Virus record (IMG/VR): IMGVR_UViG_3300049491_000418
Location: 42,776-106,775 of that record
Strand: one strand, 5' to 3'
Length of the DNA stretch: 64,000 bases
From: a virus
Positions 12,301 to 60,092 of the stretch are shown in pieces; position 1 is the stretch's first letter, and the number at the start of each line of letters is the position of its first letter. Below the pieces are notes generated by a model. It was not told where the DNA came from, did no database searches, and worked only from the letters and a program-made list of their open reading frames with translations. Made by a program: the position numbers and the translations under genes.

Positions 12301-14352
12301 CAGGGTTCTAACCATGATACAGCAAACATCAATGATCCTTACTTAGTATTTAAAAAACAACTTCAATTAGAAAGTGCCAGAAATACTATCATCTCTGGTT
12401 TAGATAGAGAAGGAAAAATTATTCCTGCTGTAGATAGTATTATGAAAACATCTTTTGTTGGTAAATTGAAAAGCCACATTGATAACTACAGAGATGCTTT
12501 TGCTGAGATGTTGCTTTCAGATAGAAATAGAGTTAGAGAAGTAATGGAAGATGTGTTACGTCCTTATAGTAAAATGAGTGATAGAGACTTTGTTAAGATT
12601 TCACAAAAAGCTGTTAATGATTTATTTGACTGGGCTGTTCAAAATGATAGAAGTATCAATAACAAAGTTGTTAGTACCTTGTTAGGAACAGATACTGAGA
12701 AAAGTGCTGCTAAACAAATTATAGAATACAGAGATAGTATATTGGGTAATCCTGCTAAAAACATTCCTGCTAAACCTGATCATCCTTTATTTGATAACAT
12801 CATTTTGAACTCTGTTACTTTAGAGGCTGGAGAAAATAACAAAAAGGTAGACAATATCTATCTAGGAAAAATTAGTAAAACATATGATCAAAACTTAGTA
12901 ATCTATGGTTTTAATGAATTAAGAACACACTTGAAAAATGAAAGCAATCCTTTATATGGTAAAATAGTTAGACTAGCTGTCTTACAATCAGGGTTAACAA
13001 ACTCTAAGATAGCTTTTACAGCTCTTCTTCCTTATAAAGATTTCAAGGAAGTATACAATGCTACCTTGTCTCAGTTAGAAGAAAAAGAAAATCTTTCTGA
13101 TTTTAAAAATATAGATGTTTTTGAAAGAAACAATTGGAATAACAGAGATGCAATTCCTATGGTTAGAGGAGAGATGAGAGAGTCTAAAAATAGTGTTGAC
13201 TTTGGTACATATGATTTAAATGCTGCTTTTGTTGGGAAACAGCTTAAGAGAGCTATCAATGCTTTTCAAGTACCTCATGTAGTAAATATTTCTGCTACTT
13301 CTCAAGAGGGACGTTCAGAATTTATTGTTTATACTTGGGAAAGTTATCTTCCTAAACCTAAACGTATTAGAGCTAAAAAGACTGGGGATAAAAGTCATAT
13401 CAATAAATACCTTATGAAAAAGGTTTACACAGTTAATGAAAAAGGAGAAAGAGTTCCTTATATTAATGTTTCTGAAGATAAAAATGTTCCTGGTAAATTT
13501 TATTATAAATTTGTATACAAAGCAATTAATGCTTGGGGAGATAGTTTCAAAGCTCAAGAACTTTATGATGAGGTAGTTCCTTCTAAGTTAGATAATGACT
13601 TCAAAAAGATTGAGTTAAAAAATGAAGCTAATACTGGCAGAAGACTTGGTGCTCCTGAAGTTGAGGATAGTTTAATCGTAGACCTTATGGAAGGAAGAAT
13701 AACAGCTGATCAGTTAAAAGCTATCAACCTTGCAAAAGATATAGATGCTTTAGGAATTTCACCAGATGTAAATGCTCCTATAGAGCCTCTAGCGGAGGAA
13801 GGTCCTAGATATTATGAAGGAGAAATTACTCCTTCTGCTGATACAGTATTTGTATTTGGTAGTAATCCTGAAGGAAGACATGGTGATGGTGCTGCTGCTG
13901 AAGCTATGGCTAAGTTTGGTGCCAAGTACTATCAAGGTAGAGGTTTACAAGGAGGTGCTTATGCTCTTGTTACTAAAAACCTAAAATCAGGATTTAAAGA
14001 ACCAAAAACTGGTATCACCTATGATGTTGCTGGGGAAAGATCTGTTAGACCTGATCAAATTGTTAATAACATTATAGAAATGTATACTGTGGCTAGAGCT
14101 AATCCTACTAAGAAATTCAAAATAGGATTTAGAAATACTATAAGTAAATCTCGTAATGGATATACAGGTTATGAGATGATGGACATGTTCAAGAATGCTG
14201 GTGAGATACCTGCTAATGTTTACTTCAGTAAAGAATGGGTAGATACAGGTAAGATGGATGCTGATTATACATCATTGGCAGAATCAAAAATAATTAATCC
14301 TAATAATGCTCCTGGTATATTACCAGAGATAGACAGAACCACTGAATGTTAA
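337..14352 (+). CDS. Giant virion-packaged DNA-dependent RNA polymerase (crAss-like, phi14:2 gp66-type), multidomain
   Basis: 4671 aa; RIPTQ...GSDFDIDKL with DxDxD motif DFDID at 11089-11103; zincin-like YHEVFE at 6790; coiled-coil and acidic linker regions; C-terminal VFVFGSN..GRHG.GAA domain. Confidence 0.9.
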   Translation: MEEEIGLMNDLPTASNISVPSGDNPNISSAHELPVNLGGTASGLPVYVPNNPSTRGSGKPEFREQSLEEIMDGMDISDKSGALDYVSARDLPGSGRYDKGVYVGRDAEEMYAQQQSTAEKWGNGVAKMVGTAATTFVSGTVGTLNGIGAMFAENRLAAFYDNDTNRKMDEYNKKMEDYLPNYYTQAETSASWLSPKNVWTANFWSDKVIKNLGFSIGSMAGGAAWSKAFGFVGKINALVRAEKGLETLTAVEAAMVNANSVSKFGAVSKALNGLATKYVNPAGAYILANGERATIALMGTMGEASMEALQNMNDFRNKLIKEYKLQSGVEPSGEDLEEINNMADHVGNFTWGMNVALLSATNYIQLPKILNSSKTAERRAINELAKESVAEGATIAEKTAAKYGAKASNLERAFGKPGKLFGDYLVNPVSLLFAPSEAFEEGMQFAIQTGVEDYFNRAHQNEQDTNDFWNNTLDSMGNVFSYGVKQALTTKEGLEGILIGGISGGLQTSFSPFGENNIKERGFTGTGGQVGRNTAAAITEINNSKNLTQALKDARNFVSIGIGSQKNRQEAVANNDTFNEKNFEKDYALSYIMPRVKYGKIDAVLSELDLYRRQALSDAGFEDLKASEVVLENETKQQFIKRLDNIESTSRQVSKTYDIINDRYSNITDEKGRRLYDDKVVDELVYAAAKTVDADERLKDLSSEMSLAGLGIDRLRTAMQASPSWEDNNTKGVIKDAEVQKEINALFAEAKIKDPNNLQNYREKVFDFANLLVDRKRYIDDYNKRILTPEEFSAPDVDTTEYPPIGSPKEVMKVTTSTGDVNVNVGEEYIMGRVTLKSKKGHDVYEAPTITILGQNEDGTLKVKKEDGTIVSMDPEELESRSLTKAEDVRKNPKISFYIYNWNVVWKNRSVKGADGKAAVGRIVYDKKQDRLLFQYIGKGGVLMEQEVINTMFSYKTATKLGFKQPYITAQSVLTPAQEASMEKFIESKMSFSEKIKARNSIISNLYETSKARLEQVTKELTSAKEKVDKAASTIEEQVKKGIETKEGTWKVKAIKSITKMARDLGALDASLLQQIEDLENEKEELEATIPYFKDFLEDIMSTPESGKEMIEDIKKDINDLEDLIDTTKDAISKTKSAIKLVEDLLKNALGVFNDYVKRLKEENPNMPLFLDDFLAKLEKYLGEEGAKQFVADKLGFTEQVLELDSDISDFKDELKIPDLQKRASTLSTDLKELEKGLDDLIAAQMAKAKILDEFKEFADREKAVQAEEKRMHTNPTLVKDLIGTLNKTVQNFFGNKAYDPMSKKPDMAVVRSTRPISDGKPHQERANHFGARMDSFSKKKRDSIRGIIVTQKTQGGVIDGLVEHLLSQVPEEDKEKYPANEVIALVMVEVDKKGNQFLLDQDGKRLSKDADVINSAIYQVFPTKSLKGNYVDADGNRKFGSMFRDDTPQSTVDSLTKQYAAWVDDQLAADAMPAPYKVSASFGYPELQKVMGETKEEIDHNARTSAKAAGLVTDVMLEREPVIQVKTSDAPVTLGNVTFTSPKGRVFLTLPNGIAKLFNRKFTATEAETIYDVLLQVTKNVRDHGEVRPETERLFNWLRSTTYWGFSKDRQGNPKPAGYNNMWFQEVTDTNNEKRLKLYISGKTTDPTQAIDFTYSSLYNRKGDIMMLLQNMYNNTSNHLTNESNWQNPYSQIVGINEDGSPQTVDWPNYQSYLLSDKMPDGGVRKNEDIPLITKFRPLVDENDTNRKGIYFTLKSGPTSFTMPEKEEATPATSEEPSASTTPTDSAPTVTPTKEEGSISMTIDGYEFDGKTPNTMELNAGPITFTVDIEKQMADGAGVSITSPGETVEALIAAKGYAEDHAYNVINATVLARLKPSLEKGIAELKARQTGKVEQKEPSVEASAVITPTPKVGKLDLTGENWNPINTKYGPTRFKINADKFLAGDVSLSAINVEMDPDLVDAVIEAKQSQNYDEEAAHKFIQQNVLFLIKDELALYDIKKNSSTPLENPPVEDTTEEAPAEEETIEEIDEVREATDESVNAPTETEIADGNNTTIEEAAPKKRGGFGKVDPNRIPLRDRKEYRLQVLKEAKAFEGENWEKVEKWLAANFPGLPVYRVKNMIKASNGRQAWGALMDGSIYLTQNAEVGTVYHEVFEAVWKMFAGPKEKNAIIKEFRNRPGYYKDRFTGKLIKFSRATDAELKEELAEEFRDKVLYGKDPVRIKGRNLISRLFNELLDFIHKFFTGKEAVNNTKQLFDKIGNGYYKNIHNPYLTKLSFPQEGIIDIEDMDVGDNAELRINNIPAIQVHDIIQHMTYSLLAPLSESNDILFSLSDILSKGKTKIYAELQEEVLGAINEKGLVLVDKEASGQKLTDSEQRMFDNLETLYNNVETEWKNIVEEHVNYLKTYALEFDENDELNINEGEQSGKEDWQDARTIDSFRKSNSAIKLLLGTLPVKTMKNGYPETVYSSIGGYTLLPANAVHIDLMNRLHDSVDIDEMMERLQNIALNDPKYFQLFERLTGKQPSANQDVYSDISDSDFRLISSFWRVLKKQNADVITVFIQPGGEVIVSDSTLASATKEAKRDMMSKIIDTMKTEKTPYFSYNSKTGRYSATKVLKDVTFSSEMSSYTNFLKNLGIKIDPVKLSDTLDENQKKMFRKTVGFIKETIEVIGDKVKTTNPDTGEEMTIDTGIMSINTSTLNIDADMTRLGIIQAILENPVFESTYFNINGQRTQSYVGTNTVSSFYDVLSKVVDFSEDLQEPQNKGFRYLLTDKFAKNSQILKKLFVQNDDGSYGERKDGTEGIMKTVFIDGTIDEYSGKKKESSKLNYVQRFVQELNLNLEGIYLNLVPGDASIEHAVRLHSDDNPFVNKDSYENGRHLPIFRDYFIDEVELARDERLVANVSGRNSTDLRFFKSILEDKSKANKNALHDEIMYDEKNKDKTSEELYKSYESQINTAVNKFIVEQGKETQRLFNKFNIIQANPENGLEAPGLNFKQDELKPEFLAQKLEVMAVNYMIANIEFHKLIYSDPYQYSDELKRIKNFNSPRQALVFNSQTLGKFLQDFYNKGVNPKDKAAYTDFQRDHFRTVTIDDIFSTNKNKDYEDPFEETDGGGYITIQALRKFRLRLGDWTPANERQFQFDLDYERKVKAGASAEDLRKFLKRNPNIKNTYTPVKPIVSGNKENGRDFNDVVLHKFALVPLSYRVLHELQENSYAIKLLDKMVNDDIDYAVYASGSKVGTETVHELYNEDGTFNNTPFESQREKEGFLPNNVKRGVSNIPFSIVGLQTEVPSKDTPLVTQGSQITKLVTMDFMEAGMPVDFMPEAEFMDRFAVWTTTDEEGRMKSELYRMVQHNQNLLEAKIVEGYNSLLKKLGIVQGKEGDNLTFTITDRDKFIKTLKDEILKREVNYNITDSFDGFESGHVVLEATPAYQQIRNILYSIADKNVVRPKISGGMKVQIPSSLLLEQHRVNIGSFKNKAGEIKQIFESSELEFYTKSEDGKSVNVAEIMVGRWFKSDKTDEELIEYFNNDPEGKKQLEALAGIAFRIPTQKQNSIDVFKIKKFLPKDFGDSVVVPSALVKKVGSDFDIDKLSIYLKNLYPGKDKNLKTVPYLGTGDQALDKFRKLFDEGEFDEYVKTFKDFLDLDSAEDRLLESIFPEDYAEQRSIQKEDVVNKLYKESLENEYIRSLEGLVSHPSNYEALVKPNSAQDLKDITNDINERKGLEKTDYTNVGNMLNRGFMSKQRHEFVTGKQAIGIAAVAQTNHSQNQRSPLFLDFRKLKKEGMDELDRTLLGGNPKAKSYANNPRINFKHYNSILVDGIAFPTLSLIKAAGQATEYISDTIGMFIDGYVDVAKGGWIMEMGATPNTAGTWLYLIKIGVPIKDVAYFMNQPIIVDYLQRIENKGQTWLFSEGNILKTLELYESPEDTSKPEVRAVIDSITSIPNLSTLKSNIGKTIEDMTPQELYEQHFMLKEFVKYAKQASQLFEVTQGSNHDTANINDPYLVFKKQLQLESARNTIISGLDREGKIIPAVDSIMKTSFVGKLKSHIDNYRDAFAEMLLSDRNRVREVMEDVLRPYSKMSDRDFVKISQKAVNDLFDWAVQNDRSINNKVVSTLLGTDTEKSAAKQIIEYRDSILGNPAKNIPAKPDHPLFDNIILNSVTLEAGENNKKVDNIYLGKISKTYDQNLVIYGFNELRTHLKNESNPLYGKIVRLAVLQSGLTNSKIAFTALLPYKDFKEVYNATLSQLEEKENLSDFKNIDVFERNNWNNRDAIPMVRGEMRESKNSVDFGTYDLNAAFVGKQLKRAINAFQVPHVVNISATSQEGRSEFIVYTWESYLPKPKRIRAKKTGDKSHINKYLMKKVYTVNEKGERVPYINVSEDKNVPGKFYYKFVYKAINAWGDSFKAQELYDEVVPSKLDNDFKKIELKNEANTGRRLGAPEVEDSLIVDLMEGRITADQLKAINLAKDIDALGISPDVNAPIEPLAEEGPRYYEGEITPSADTVFVFGSNPEGRHGDGAAAEAMAKFGAKYYQGRGLQGGAYALVTKNLKSGFKEPKTGITYDVAGERSVRPDQIVNNIIEMYTVARANPTKKFKIGFRNTISKSRNGYTGYEMMDMFKNAGEIPANVYFSKEWVDTGKMDADYTSLAESKIINPNNAPGILPEIDRTTEC

Positions 14353-53730: not shown

Positions 53731-53834
53731 TAGGGGTAACAGGATTTGAACCTGCATGATTGATGTATATATCCATTTTATAGGCAAATGTTCAATCTTA
53801 CTTATTTAGCGTCTACCAATTCCGCCATACCCCT
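53731..53834 (-). ncRNA. tRNA-like RNA #1 (Leu-type acceptor/D/T arms, non-canonical central domain)
   Basis: AGGGGTA/TACCCCT+A acceptor; TG GCG GAATTGGTAGA CGC D-arm; GCAGG TTCAAAT CCTGT T-arm; 53-nt central segment with no canonical anticodon arm. Confidence 0.75.
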
Positions 53835-53840
53835 TCCATT

Positions 53841-55031
53841 CTATTTCTTATTATTCATATTCAAGGATAAATCCATTTGAGCTTTTGCTGTCATTAACTC
53901 CATAAAGTTAAGCCCTGCATTACCTCCATTGTTTCCAGATCCTCCAGATACAAAGGTAGGAACTAAACTTCCTCCATATGCTCCAAATGCATCAGCCCAA
54001 TACTTTTGAACTTCCTTATAAGCTTGTAATTTTTGATCTAAAGCACCATCAGCTTCCATTATAAGACGCTTTTTAGTTGCAATACCCTGACCTTCCAAAA
54101 TATCTTTTTGCTTTCTTAATTCAGCTGTTTTCACATCTAATTCAGCAACTCTATTTCTGGATTCTGCTTCAGTAACAACTTTAGCTTTAATAACCTCTTG
54201 TTCCCATTTAGCTTTAGCAGCATCTGCCTCACCCTGCTTTTGGGTAGTAATGGCATCTTGAATAGCTTTTTGAGCATTAGCTTTAGAAGTTTGTACACTC
54301 ATAACTAAACGTTGTTGATCAGCAATTTGTTTTGTAACAGTTCCTGAAAATACAATTTCATTAATAGTAAAATTAGATAATACCACACCATAAGTAGCAA
54401 CGTCGGAAGCTTTAATGATTTGAGGTTTACCATCTTTATACACAATTTCTAATAATTTAGTATTGGCATCAGCAAGAGTATCTTTAGTAGCAATAGCTTT
54501 AGTTCTATAAATACCATTATTGGCTTGATCTTCTGTATAAGTCAACAAAGCTGTCTTTTTCTCAGATACTGCTTCTTTTGATGACATTAAAGGCCCAGAC
54601 ATATAAATGGCTTTAGTAACTGCTTGTTTAATTAATTTAAATTCTATAGATTCTTGTGTACCATAGTCACTATGAAGTTTTAATACCTGTTCTTTATTAG
54701 TTGGCATATACCAACGCACTGAACCAGATACTGTACCTTCACCAAAATCATTGAAACCAATTTTAATGGCACCTTTACCACCTTCATCTTCTTTATTAGA
54801 AAACCATAATTGATTACTTCTTTGATATTTGGTAACTGTACCACCTCCTTGCCAAGCCCATCCTGGTGTAGTGATAACTGACATTTCTCCTGTCATAGGA
54901 CTTTGAATTACTGCTATTTCTCCAGCAGCTATATCTTCAAAACAATTAAATGCTAAAATTACTCCAAGGATTACACCTCCTATTATCATTCCAAACTTCT
55001 TAATACCTGCTACAATTGATTCTGTTTCCAT
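53841..55031 (-). CDS. SPFH/Band-7 (prohibitin/flotillin-like) membrane protein
   Basis: N-terminal TM, IAAGEIAVIQ, PGW, FNDFGEG, long A/E/K coiled coil. Confidence 0.85.
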   Translation of the reverse strand: METESIVAGIKKFGMIIGGVILGVILAFNCFEDIAAGEIAVIQSPMTGEMSVITTPGWAWQGGGTVTKYQRSNQLWFSNKEDEGGKGAIKIGFNDFGEGTVSGSVRWYMPTNKEQVLKLHSDYGTQESIEFKLIKQAVTKAIYMSGPLMSSKEAVSEKKTALLTYTEDQANNGIYRTKAIATKDTLADANTKLLEIVYKDGKPQIIKASDVATYGVVLSNFTINEIVFSGTVTKQIADQQRLVMSVQTSKANAQKAIQDAITTQKQGEADAAKAKWEQEVIKAKVVTEAESRNRVAELDVKTAELRKQKDILEGQGIATKKRLIMEADGALDQKLQAYKEVQKYWADAFGAYGGSLVPTFVSGGSGNNGGNAGLNFMELMTAKAQMDLSLNMNNKK

Positions 55032-55325: not shown

Positions 55326-56723
55326 TTATTCATTATCCCAAACTTGTTTAACAACTCCTTTAACCTCACTAAAGTATTCTCCATCATGAAGAACAGCTTT
55401 AAGAGAATTAGCTAATGATTTCTCACTAGTAATATAGTTATCTTTAGTTTGAGCTAAATCAACTTGTCTTAAATAAGATCCAATACATACATCAAATTCT
55501 ACAGCTTTAATGGTATTATCACCACGGATAACCATTGTAGATTTAACGTTTTCAATGATTTCTGCCATAAAAGCAGGAGCAATTTTACTAGATCCAATTC
55601 TTTCATAAATAGGTTCAAAGTTTCCTTCAAGATTAACTCCTGCACAGAAAGATTTAACATATTCTCTAGAAGTGTTAGCATCTAAATAATCCATTGAAAT
55701 AATAGTACCAATTCTTTTTCCTCTTAAGAAAGTAGGATCAATTAATTCCAAGTGATTAGTAGTGAATAAGGCTATAACATTCATATCCTTAGTATCTCCC
55801 CCATCTAAAGTGTTCAAAATATCTTGCAATGCAGCATCTCTTTCACCTCTTGTTACTTGGTCAATATCCTCTACAAATACAATAATACCACTACCATTGT
55901 TATCCAATGTTTTAGCCATACGTAATGTATCAGCTAATAACTCTGGAGATTTAAGATAGATAGCAGCAAAATTGTTTTTGTTACCTAAGTTTGCTAACTT
56001 GAAAGCTAACAAGGTTTTACCTGTACCATAACCACCTTCAAGCAAAGCACCAAATTTAATTGGAATATTTACTTTTTTACAGTTGTCAGCATGTAAAATT
56101 CTTGCATATAAAGGAGCTAAAGCTACTTCCGTTTTTTCAGAAAGGATCATAACTTCTCTGTCTACACCACTCATATCAATAAGTTGTGGTTGACCTTCAT
56201 CAACATTAATGTTGATTTCAAAAGTTTGATTTTTATAAATACTATCAGTATTTAATAAAAACTTAGTTTTTTCAATAATTCTATCAATTAAAGAATTAAA
56301 TTTGAATTGACATTTACCTCTTACATAAAGCTTTCTTTCATGAAAGTCATAATGAATTCTAATTTGAGCTCCTTCTCCCATGTCTGGTAATTCAATATCA
56401 CCATAAGGTACTTTTTTACGTATTCCCCCAGCCAATATTACATCAACTGTGTTCATAGGACGTTCAGTACCTGAAGGACCTTCATTTTTACCCATAGTTG
56501 TTACTCCAATGATTTCTTCAATTGCTCTATTCAATTGATAGACACCATCACTCATAAAGCATGAGATTTTGTAATCAAAATTAGTCATTCTACCAGCGTT
56601 AGCAATTTCATTTTCTAAATAAACTACTATTTCTGGATAAGGTTTTGGCCCTTGCCCCAATTTTACTAGTTCCGCTTTTTTCTCTGTTTCCCAACTTAAT
56701 TGTACATTTTTGATAGTTTCCAT
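55326..56723 (-). CDS. Classical AAA+ ATPase
   Basis: GGYGTGKT, VFVEDID, LNTLDG, TTNH, DPTFLRGKRIG. Confidence 0.9.
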   Translation of the reverse strand: METIKNVQLSWETEKKAELVKLGQGPKPYPEIVVYLENEIANAGRMTNFDYKISCFMSDGVYQLNRAIEEIIGVTTMGKNEGPSGTERPMNTVDVILAGGIRKKVPYGDIELPDMGEGAQIRIHYDFHERKLYVRGKCQFKFNSLIDRIIEKTKFLLNTDSIYKNQTFEININVDEGQPQLIDMSGVDREVMILSEKTEVALAPLYARILHADNCKKVNIPIKFGALLEGGYGTGKTLLAFKLANLGNKNNFAAIYLKSPELLADTLRMAKTLDNNGSGIIVFVEDIDQVTRGERDAALQDILNTLDGGDTKDMNVIALFTTNHLELIDPTFLRGKRIGTIISMDYLDANTSREYVKSFCAGVNLEGNFEPIYERIGSSKIAPAFMAEIIENVKSTMVIRGDNTIKAVEFDVCIGSYLRQVDLAQTKDNYITSEKSLANSLKAVLHDGEYFSEVKGVVKQVWDNE

Positions 56724-58494: not shown

Positions 58495-59328
58495 TTATTC
58501 AATGTCTTTGTAGAAACCTTTACTAACATCTTCTCCTGCAGCTACTTTACTAGAATAAGCTGATCTTGATACACTATTTACTTGCATACCTCTAGATAAA
58601 CTTTCAGGAGTATTATCATGAACAAGAGTATTGCTTATATCAAATTTGAGATTTCTTTGAGCAAAATCTACATCACGTTGTGTACCAATAAAGGTAAATG
58701 TCCAGCCAACTTTACTTAATTCTTCTATTAAAGAAGCAATATCATTAGCTCTAAATCTTCTTGATGTATTTTCTTCACCATCAGTATAGATATTAACCAA
58801 TACTTTATCAGTATCTTTTACAGAAGGCTTAACCAATGCTACAGATTTTCCAATAGCATCATATAAAGCTGTACTACCTCTGGTACCTCCTCTAAAATTA
58901 CTAACAGTTTTTAAATCAGCTAAAGTGTATCTAAAAATAAGATCATCGGAGAAATCACAAAGAGTGTAAGTATAATTTACATCAACTTTATCATTCTTGA
59001 TAGTTTCAATACCATGATTTACACCTTTAATAGCAGCAGCTATTTTACCACCACTCATAGATCCACTACTATCTAGCACATCTATAACATGTATAGTAGG
59101 TTTTACTCCCACTTTGACTTTTACAATAGGTTTTTTCTTTTCCTGAGGAACAACAACTGAAGCTCCTTTGAAAGGCAAGCTACCTTTTCCTGCTGTAACT
59201 AAAAGATCCAACAGTTTAATCATTTCTGTTGCATTTTTAAAACCTTCTTTTTTAGCTTTGTCCTCTCTAGCAGTCTTGTTGTACTGTTTGATGGCTTTCA
59301 GCATTTCTGCATTTGTTTTTGTTTTCAT
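58495..59328 (-). CDS. von Willebrand factor A domain protein
   Basis: MIDAS motif LDSSGSM, TALYDAIG, TDGEENTS, GWTFTFIG. Confidence 0.9.
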   Translation of the reverse strand: MKTKTNAEMLKAIKQYNKTAREDKAKKEGFKNATEMIKLLDLLVTAGKGSLPFKGASVVVPQEKKKPIVKVKVGVKPTIHVIDVLDSSGSMSGGKIAAAIKGVNHGIETIKNDKVDVNYTYTLCDFSDDLIFRYTLADLKTVSNFRGGTRGSTALYDAIGKSVALVKPSVKDTDKVLVNIYTDGEENTSRRFRANDIASLIEELSKVGWTFTFIGTQRDVDFAQRNLKFDISNTLVHDNTPESLSRGMQVNSVSRSAYSSKVAAGEDVSKGFYKDIE

Positions 59329-59346: not shown

Positions 59347-59637
59347 TTATTTTTTCAAATTATTAAAAAACTCTTCAAAATTGGTTGGATTATTATTTTT
59401 TCCAAATTCTGATCCTACCTTTTCTAAAATCTTCTTTAGACTCTCTGCAATGTGAGTACAGGTTAGAAAAACTAATTCATCCTCTGTAAACCTACCTCTA
59501 ACTTTATGAAAAAGAGTATGTGCTTCCTCAGGAGCAGATAATCTTATTACTTCCATCATACTATTTACTACTTTAGCATTTAGAGCTTGAAAATCTATGT
59601 TTTTGTATCTCTCTTTGTCTTTTTCTTCTTCTGTCAT
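59347..59637 (-). CDS. Hypothetical protein (paralogue of the next gene)
   Basis: FTEDELVFLTCTHIA motif. Confidence 0.7.
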   Translation of the reverse strand: MTEEEKDKERYKNIDFQALNAKVVNSMMEVIRLSAPEEAHTLFHKVRGRFTEDELVFLTCTHIAESLKKILEKVGSEFGKNNNPTNFEEFFNNLKK

Positions 59638-59933
59638 GACTTATTTTTTAAATTAGACTCAAGTGCTTCAGCTTCTTTCATAGCTTCAATCATTTTCTTT
59701 AAAGGAGGAATCTGATTAATAGCATCTTCAATAGAAATTGCAGCATGTACACATACTATATAAGCCATTTCTTCTTTAGTCATACTTTCCATAGCATGGC
59801 TATAAGGATCAACACTTATAGGTTCATCTTTAGGATTTTTGACCATAACCATCATTACTCCAGACATTTTGCCTGCAATCTCTTCAGGATTTAATCCTTC
59901 AAGAATTTTTTGGTATTCTTCATTTTTTGACAT
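59634..59933 (-). CDS. Hypothetical protein (paralogue of the previous gene)
   Basis: MTKEEMAYIVCVHAA motif. Confidence 0.7.
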   Translation of the reverse strand: MSKNEEYQKILEGLNPEEIAGKMSGVMMVMVKNPKDEPISVDPYSHAMESMTKEEMAYIVCVHAAISIEDAINQIPPLKKMIEAMKEAEALESNLKNKS

Positions 59934-59964: not shown

Positions 59965-60092
59965 TAGGGGGAGCAGCTCCGATGCTGCATTTGCTATTTG
60001 GACTGTCTAGCAATCTTATTAAGGATCCAACAACCTTCTTGTCCTAGATAAGCTCTCCTCTTAATAAAGTGTCTCCATTGCACCATCCCCCT
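59965..60092 (-). ncRNA. tRNA-like RNA #2 (expanded anticodon domain, long variable arm)
   Basis: AGGGGGA/TCCCCCT+A acceptor; TG GTG CAATGGAGA CAC D-arm; TTATTAAG/CTTAATAA stem around a 36-nt loop; TTGCTA/TAGCAA arm; GCAGC ATCGGA GCTGC T-like arm. Confidence 0.65.

Follow-up and report, generated by a model that had tools for sequence, protein, structure and literature searches.

A conserved, structured, tRNA-Leu-derived RNA gene in crAss-like phages and an unrelated large phage

The minus strand of a phage genome recovered from the environment encodes, at positions 59965 to 60092, a 128-nt tRNA-like RNA gene that is conserved across a family of homologues, has a covarying secondary structure, and derives from tRNA-Leu, a conclusion that we regard as established. 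Coordinates are those of the window, the whole 64-kb stretch of DNA analyzed here, which runs to the end of a single virus record of 106,775 bp; position i of the RNA corresponds to window coordinate 60093-i. A preliminary description of this locus, made from a single sequence, had proposed a tRNA scaffold with a replaced decoding domain and had set a search for homologues and covariation beforehand as the test by which the proposal could be refuted. The proposal survived this test, as homologues were found and their covariation is strong.

By its gene content the window phage is a distant, environmental crAss-like phage. It encodes ORFs of 4,671 and 1,631 aa, a family A DNA polymerase, and RIIA/RIIB-like proteins, and the best matches of its primase, ∼30% identical, come from uncultured crAss-like phages and from Bacteroides, Flavobacterium, and Cellulophaga phages. 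The crAss-like phages are among the most abundant phage groups, and to our knowledge almost no noncoding RNAs have been described in them.

Homologues and covariation

We recovered seven distinct members of the family, including the window copy, all of them in contigs of uncultivated phages and 53 to 76% identical to one another. A relative of the window phage (L004) carries a 130-nt homologue with a canonical T arm at the corresponding position, where the same vWA-like gene lies ∼600 nt downstream, and pattern searches identified further members in the IMG/VR contigs L020, L035, L040 (also L060), L076, and L079 (also L082). The search patterns were built from two conserved loops together with the scaffold; exact-pattern scans returned the L004 contig only, while the full set of pattern scans over IMG/VR, the JGI metagenomes (241 million records), and the GTDB genomes gave the seven distinct members in total. 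Many other pattern matches were chance occurrences or coding sequence. Scans of IMG/VR and the JGI metagenomes in which the apical loop, the variable loop, or both were left free returned no further member and no different variable loop, and a pattern scan of the GTDB genomes, checked with the model, returned no member. A DNA search with 1.1 kb around the locus gave no match among GenBank phages, and blastn with two family members against the same phages gave T-arm fragments only. Rfam 15 does not contain this family, Rfam searches of the window and the carrier loci at permissive thresholds returned only tRNA and noise, and a full-text search of the literature found no description of such an RNA.

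The family is carried once per genome by crAss-like phages and by at least one unrelated large phage: each carrier record holds exactly one copy, replication genes of the window phage recur in six carriers, and at an E value of 1e-4 none of them is shared by the seventh, for which there are records of 86 and 248 kb. In L001, another syntenic relative, the 5' two thirds of the RNA are gone, which indicates that the RNA is accessory and dispensable in some lineages. What survives there is a truncated remnant (L001:2330-2381, plus strand) in which the T arm is flanked by the last part of the variable arm and by the 3' strand of the acceptor, re-paired with GGGAA to form an acceptor/T-arm minihelix; the end of a small membrane-protein ORF replaces the 5' part.

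A covariance model built from six homologues with the window sequence left out (model R2) matches positions 59965 to 60092 of the minus strand end to end, with 103.5 bits and an E value of 1.4e-20. Folding of the MAFFT alignment with RNAalifold gave 38 pairs, 32 of them with compensatory changes, and 33 of the 42 pairs in the model-based alignment change on both sides. Standard pairing is found in 97.6% of the cells of this structure, compared to 39 to 42% when the partners are slid by 1 to 3 columns, and none of 500 shuffles reached the observed values. Invariant columns amount to 8 of 76 among paired positions and 30 of 58 among unpaired positions. Across the seven members compensatory changes occur in every helix, the loop-loop contact discussed below aside, and stem lengths are constant throughout the family. 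The minimum free energy fold of the window copy is the cloverleaf described below, with a z-score of −1.73 and with 12 of 200 shuffles folding as well, values that make folding energy alone no proof of this structure.

Evidence on the window copy itself comes from soil-metagenome contigs of a close relative, which diverge by ∼10% in the flanks and differ at two positions within the 128 nt. Both differences improve pairing: U42>C turns a U.G pair into C-G, and C69>U (position 60024) turns an A.C mismatch into A-U, the ninth pair of the corresponding stem in the other members. This contrast with the flanks indicates that the window copy is under purifying selection despite its odd T and D loops.

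A class II scaffold with a structured insert

The assignment to the minus strand follows from the G.U pairs, the tRNA features, and the gene orientation. Sequence comparison places the scaffold in the class II, tRNA-Leu type: the D arm of the family resembles GGYGGAAUUGGUAGACRC, the variable arm is long, and a family model (R1) scores T4 tRNA-Leu highest among the T4 tRNAs. The acceptor 5' strand AGGGGGA (60086 to 60092) pairs with positions 59966 to 59972, and all seven pairs show compensatory changes in the family. In the window copy this 7-bp stem (AGGGGGA/UCCCCCU) begins with A1-U72, and by sequence reading the 3' strand UCCCCCU together with an unpaired discriminator A (59965) occupies positions 59965 to 59972; CCA is encoded in none of the seven members. 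The preliminary description had reported such a G-rich acceptor with A1-U72 and discriminator A, of the same type as in another tRNA-like element of the window (element 1, 53731 to 53834), and on the minus strand this is what we find. Its D arm with GG in the loop also stands, both by sequence reading and in the minimum free energy fold: the arm lies at 60069 to 60083 with the stem GUG/CAC (alignments A3 and A4), and its loop in the window copy is shortened and degenerate relative to the tRNA-Leu-type loop AAUUGGUAGA of most other members. The T-like arm (59973 to 59988) consists, as had been proposed, of the 5-bp stem GCAGC/GCUGC, in which all five pairs covary, and the 6-nt loop AUCGGA. The T loop of the other six members is the canonical 7-nt UUCGAAU or UUCAAAU, and the 7-nt UUCRANY loop of decoding tRNAs is absent from the window copy.

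An insert of 36 to 38 nt takes the place of the anticodon arm across the members, enclosed by a long stem of 8 to 9 bp in which eight of the nine pairs show compensatory changes in the family. The 5' part of this region in the window copy (60052 to 60067) contains the long-stem strand UUAUUAAG (60067 to 60060) followed by the internal-loop strand AGGAGA (60059 to 60054), the GGA of which is kept in five of the seven members, and the 3' part (60016 to 60032) contains the internal-loop strand UGUUGGAUC (60032 to 60024), with a G-A at 60027 to 60026 that is invariant in the family, followed by the long-stem strand CUUAAUAA (60023 to 60016). The internal loop is asymmetric, its 5' strand across the family being mostly GGAU and its 3' strand ending in the invariant G-A. 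Between the two parts lies an inner hairpin (60033 to 60053) made of GCUU, a bulged A (60049), UCU, the apical loop AGGACA (60045 to 60040), AGA, and AGGU. All seven pairs of this hairpin covary across the family, the apical loop is AGGACA in six members and AGGACC in one (L079), and the bulge is A in six of seven. The 8-bp stem UUAUUAAG/CUUAAUAA of the window copy does enclose 36 nt, as the preliminary description had it; the open loop that it had drawn there is instead a conserved structured insert.

The variable arm (59991 to 60013) has a 6-bp stem, with five of its six pairs covarying, and an 11-nt loop GACAGUCCAAA (60007 to 59997). This loop reads (G/A)ACAGUCCAAA in all seven members, so that its last 10 bases are invariant. 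On an unrelated viral contig (L070:2192-2282, plus strand) we also noted ACAGUCCAAA followed by AAU and a canonical T arm at the same spacing. The rest of the family fold is absent there and the score is 12 bits, and we rejected this sequence as a family member; the likeness could be a coincidence or could mark a very distant relative.

The GGAC of the apical loop (60044 to 60041) is complementary to the GUCC of the variable loop (60003 to 60000), as had been noted for the window copy, and the match is present in seven of seven members, with the two loop motifs 32 nt apart in every one by direct reading. A kissing contact between them is plausible on this reading of the sequences. Covariation is silent on the contact, speaking neither for it nor against it, because both loops are invariant, and a chance complementarity of 4 bp is not unusual for loops of 6 and 11 nt; agreement with the variable loop is less consistent for the remaining GGA motifs of the insert. 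The internal loop agrees cleanly with the K-turn consensus (a 3-nt bulge, tandem G.A/A.G, then A.G) in L076, L079, and L035, while the window copy, L004, L040, and L020 deviate from the consensus and only approximate it (alignment A4). With a clean motif in three of the seven members we treat the K-turn as inferred, and we give a K-turn combined with a loop-loop lock roughly even chances. A closed module that folds back on itself would agree with the constant helix lengths and spacing.

Decoding, charging, and processing

The RNA lacks the anticodon stem-loop of a tRNA (5-bp stem, 7-nt loop, U33, and anticodon), having the longer stem and structured insert instead. With default settings ARAGORN predicted no genes in the window, and an Rfam search at the locus returned no tRNA match even at E values up to 10. 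When introns were allowed, ARAGORN called the other members and element 1 as intron-bearing tRNAs and did not call the window copy, and the amino acid and the intron position differed for each member called (Trp, His, Tyr, Ile, Ser, and Met). Since there is no consistent anticodon, the RNA very probably does not decode. Nor did we find a relation to other tRNA-like RNAs: ARAGORN -m gave no tmRNA genes in the genome, no tmRNA was found in the carrier loci, and Y RNA/YrlA (RF02553) gave no match at E values up to 10, the ends here forming an acceptor stem.

One could nonetheless read these genes as decoding tRNAs with an unusual intron, whose removal restores a normal anticodon loop. The intron-aware ARAGORN calls are in line with this, as are L035 and L076, which pass the Rfam tRNA threshold, and Lak megaphages, which have Bacteroidota hosts, are reported to carry oversized tRNA genes with conserved “enigmatic introns,” called with intron-aware settings (Devoto et al. 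2019, PMC6784885). The Lak genes, however, keep an assignable anticodon and are read as containing introns, whereas the present family has no anticodon and its insert covaries as a permanent arm. The predicted anticodon, amino acid, and intron position change from member to member; removal of the insert from the 8- to 9-bp covarying stem would leave 16 to 18 nt that are fully self-complementary, without a consistent 7-nt loop or U33; the splicing endonuclease (tRNA_int_endo) and the RtcB ligase were not found in five carrier records, two of which are at least 92% complete; and the invariant variable loop is left without explanation. We therefore consider an intron highly improbable. The same holds for an amino-acid acceptor with a role outside normal decoding, charged by a synthetase that ignores the anticodon, such as LeuRS. 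The tRNA-Leu-type scaffold and the discriminator A of the window copy speak for such a role, as does the fact that neither LeuRS nor SerRS of bacteria reads the anticodon. Against it, the discriminator, which as A73 is among the major leucine identity elements in E. coli, is A in the window copy, L035, and L076, U in L004, L020, and L079, and C in L040, a variation that argues against conserved leucylation, the length of the junction between acceptor and D arm varies in L040 and L079, and the elbow of the window copy is noncanonical. A decaying tRNA-Leu pseudogene or a chance fold might account for the weak single-sequence z-score, the degenerate T and D loops of the window copy, and the truncated remnant in L001, but it is contradicted by the compensatory changes in every helix of seven members, by the match to an independently built model, and by the two pairing-improving changes of the soil relative against the divergence of its flanks, and we regard it as almost certainly wrong.

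The position of the gene bears on how the RNA would be made. The locus lies in a long minus-strand gene block of the window, where the gene starts 5 nt after the stop codon of a small membrane-protein ORF and the next start codon follows 31 nt on; in several members the gaps to same-strand ORFs are 5 to 27 nt upstream and 15 to 68 nt downstream, and promoter-like sites show no excess. Given the tight gaps and the absence of promoter-site enrichment, the simplest route to the RNA would be co-transcription, after which tRNA-processing enzymes release it. Five of the seven members, and the soil relative of the window phage, have U at −1, which fits the known preference of RNase P. Excision by RNase P and RNase Z appears somewhat favored on these grounds, and the product would be a discrete RNA, although with a 6-nt T loop and a shortened D loop the elbow of the window copy, and hence its recognition by RNase P, may be impaired. 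The main rival to a functional RNA takes the element as purely cis-acting punctuation, a tRNA-shaped RNase P/RNase Z site of a polycistronic transcript that separates or stabilizes the flanking mRNAs and whose excised piece has no function. The tight embedding between same-strand ORFs would suit such a site, as would the differing neighbor genes of distant members and the L001 remnant, which keeps exactly the acceptor and T-arm minihelix that constitutes a minimal RNase P substrate. Punctuation needs the acceptor/T half only, however; it leaves the invariant loops, the 32-nt spacing, and the covarying inner hairpin unaccounted for, offers no reason for exactly one copy per genome, and is in our judgment unlikely, though less so than the readings of the preceding paragraph.

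The neighborhoods of distant members have no protein in common, and the genes that the carriers do have in common are replication genes. Directly downstream of the RNA in the window lie two minus-strand ORFs of 99 and 96 aa (59347 to 59933) with no family match, followed on the same strand by a vWA-like protein (58495 to 59328) and an AAA ATPase (55326 to 56723), and this small-ORF/vWA/AAA block is syntenic in the relative represented by L004 and L008.

Possible function and relation to known RNAs

Our preferred reading, which we hold with moderate confidence as a whole, is that of a non-decoding RNA descended from a class II tRNA of the tRNA-Leu type, excised from its transcript, bearing a module locked by a K-turn and a loop-loop contact, and acting as a decoy or platform. 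The space around the gene appears too small for a separate promoter or terminator, so that it would be transcribed within an operon, and host enzymes would then cut the RNA out, RNase P at the 5' end and RNase Z together with CCA addition at the 3' end, for which only the acceptor/T-arm/elbow half should be needed. The internal loop may act as a K-turn-like hinge on which the hairpin folds back so that its GGAC can pair with the GUCC of the variable loop, and this pairing would lock the lower half as a closed module. We propose that the locked module is the working part and presents its invariant bases to a partner that is not encoded nearby. That partner would most likely be a conserved host factor, with the RNA serving as a tRNA-shaped decoy or binding platform and not in translation. 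For the decoy step the only constraints are the invariant loops and the absence of a linked protein gene, and in its present form, read from sequence features, it is a tentative guess.

A narrower version of this idea is a natural tRNA-scaffolded aptamer or sponge, in which the locked module binds and neutralizes a conserved host factor; the target may be, for example, a tRNA-directed defense enzyme or a translation or processing factor. We think this rather doubtful, but if true it would represent an RNA-based phage countermeasure on a tRNA chassis that is matured by the host itself. Searches of the carrier phages for candidate partners found no CsrA, and for L7Ae gave one subthreshold match only. 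We also looked for antisense targets: in the seven carrier records, sequences complementary to the variable loop show no enrichment beyond the opposite strand of the gene itself.

Relative to class II tRNA-Leu (RF00005), the family retains the 7-bp acceptor stem, a tRNA-Leu-type D loop, the long variable arm, and, in six of seven members, a canonical T arm, and it differs in having no anticodon arm, an insert of 36 to 38 nt, an invariant 11-nt variable loop, and a discriminator that is not conserved. Phages are known to carry tRNAs as well as a few unexplained tRNA-like stable RNAs, such as species 1 and 2 of T4. Among described RNAs these products of rnaC and rnaD (AF158101, 70908 to 71171), together with the tRNA introns of the Lak megaphages, come nearest to the family. 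The T4 RNAs resemble it in being phage encoded, ∼120 to 140 nt long, located beside tRNA genes, and non-decoding, and rnaC shares with it a tRNA-type T arm but has no class II D arm. Neither rnaC nor rnaD is similar to the family in sequence or contains AGGACA or GACAGUCCAAA, their arm layout differs from that of the family, and model R1 applied to positions 69500 to 72500 of AF158101 detected T4 tRNAs only and neither of these two genes.

The proposed folding principle has an analogue in the lysine and SAM-I riboswitches, where a helix kinked by a K-turn folds back to make a loop-loop contact. If the inner module of the family works as suggested, the likeness would be one of principle, as neither a ligand nor an expression platform nor any sequence similarity is known and no Rfam riboswitch matched here. 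Y RNA/YrlA and the tRNA-like domain of tmRNA are likewise non-decoding and mimic the acceptor/T/D part of a tRNA, but the ends of Y RNA form a Ro-binding stem and not an acceptor, and tmRNA carries a tag reading frame. A synthetic counterpart is the “tRNA scaffold” of Ponchon and Dardel, which reportedly carries an RNA insert in place of the anticodon arm, with the tRNA body providing processing and stability. The family has this same design, but it is natural and conserved, and its insert appears to contact its own variable loop.

The family thus adds a compact and well-defined member to the tRNA-derived, non-decoding RNAs of phages, with comparative support that is unusually clear for seven sequences and with two invariant loops that point to a specific partner. 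A practical consequence is that intron-aware gene finders label these genes as tRNAs with arbitrary anticodons, and inferences on phage codon usage or recoding would be corrupted by such labels.

Other tRNA-like elements occur in the window and in the carrier phages. Element 1 (minus strand) is a tRNA-Leu-type scaffold of 104 nt that immediately follows an SPFH/Band 7 gene (53841 to 55031). It scores 37.2 bits with the Rfam tRNA model and 51 bits with the family model, the latter through the shared scaffold only. When it is aligned to the family model, a 6-bp stem with a 28-nt loop falls on the variable arm and almost no anticodon arm is left, and the 28-nt loop contains a 5-bp hairpin with the 7-nt loop GCCUAUA. 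The acceptor and T stems of element 1 and of the RNA described here (element 2) are similar, so the two look like paralogues. Of the earlier proposal that they are two independent tRNA scaffolds with replaced decoding domains, and members of a family rather than accidents, the family is borne out by covarying homologues while the independence is not. At the site syntenic to element 1, L008 encodes a 79-nt tRNA-like RNA (L008:744-822, minus strand) with a canonical T arm and a shorter, different middle, which scores 12.3 bits with R1; what is kept at this site is a tRNA-shaped element with a center that is not conserved.

The unrelated large phage with the 86- and 248-kb records has a cluster of tRNA-like genes on the plus strand, at L040:12564-12696, 13517-13587, and 13811-13938, with the family member at the end of the cluster. 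Besides a 71-nt tRNA it includes two oversized tRNA-like RNAs (133 and 128 nt), which score 36.2 and 30.7 bits with the Rfam tRNA model and combine a tRNA-type acceptor, D arm, and T arm with a long aberrant middle. L020 encodes a 105-nt class I tRNA (L020:3916-4020, minus strand; 49.6 bits with Rfam) that appears to have an 8-nt anticodon loop and an insertion of ∼35 nt separating its D arm from the anticodon arm.
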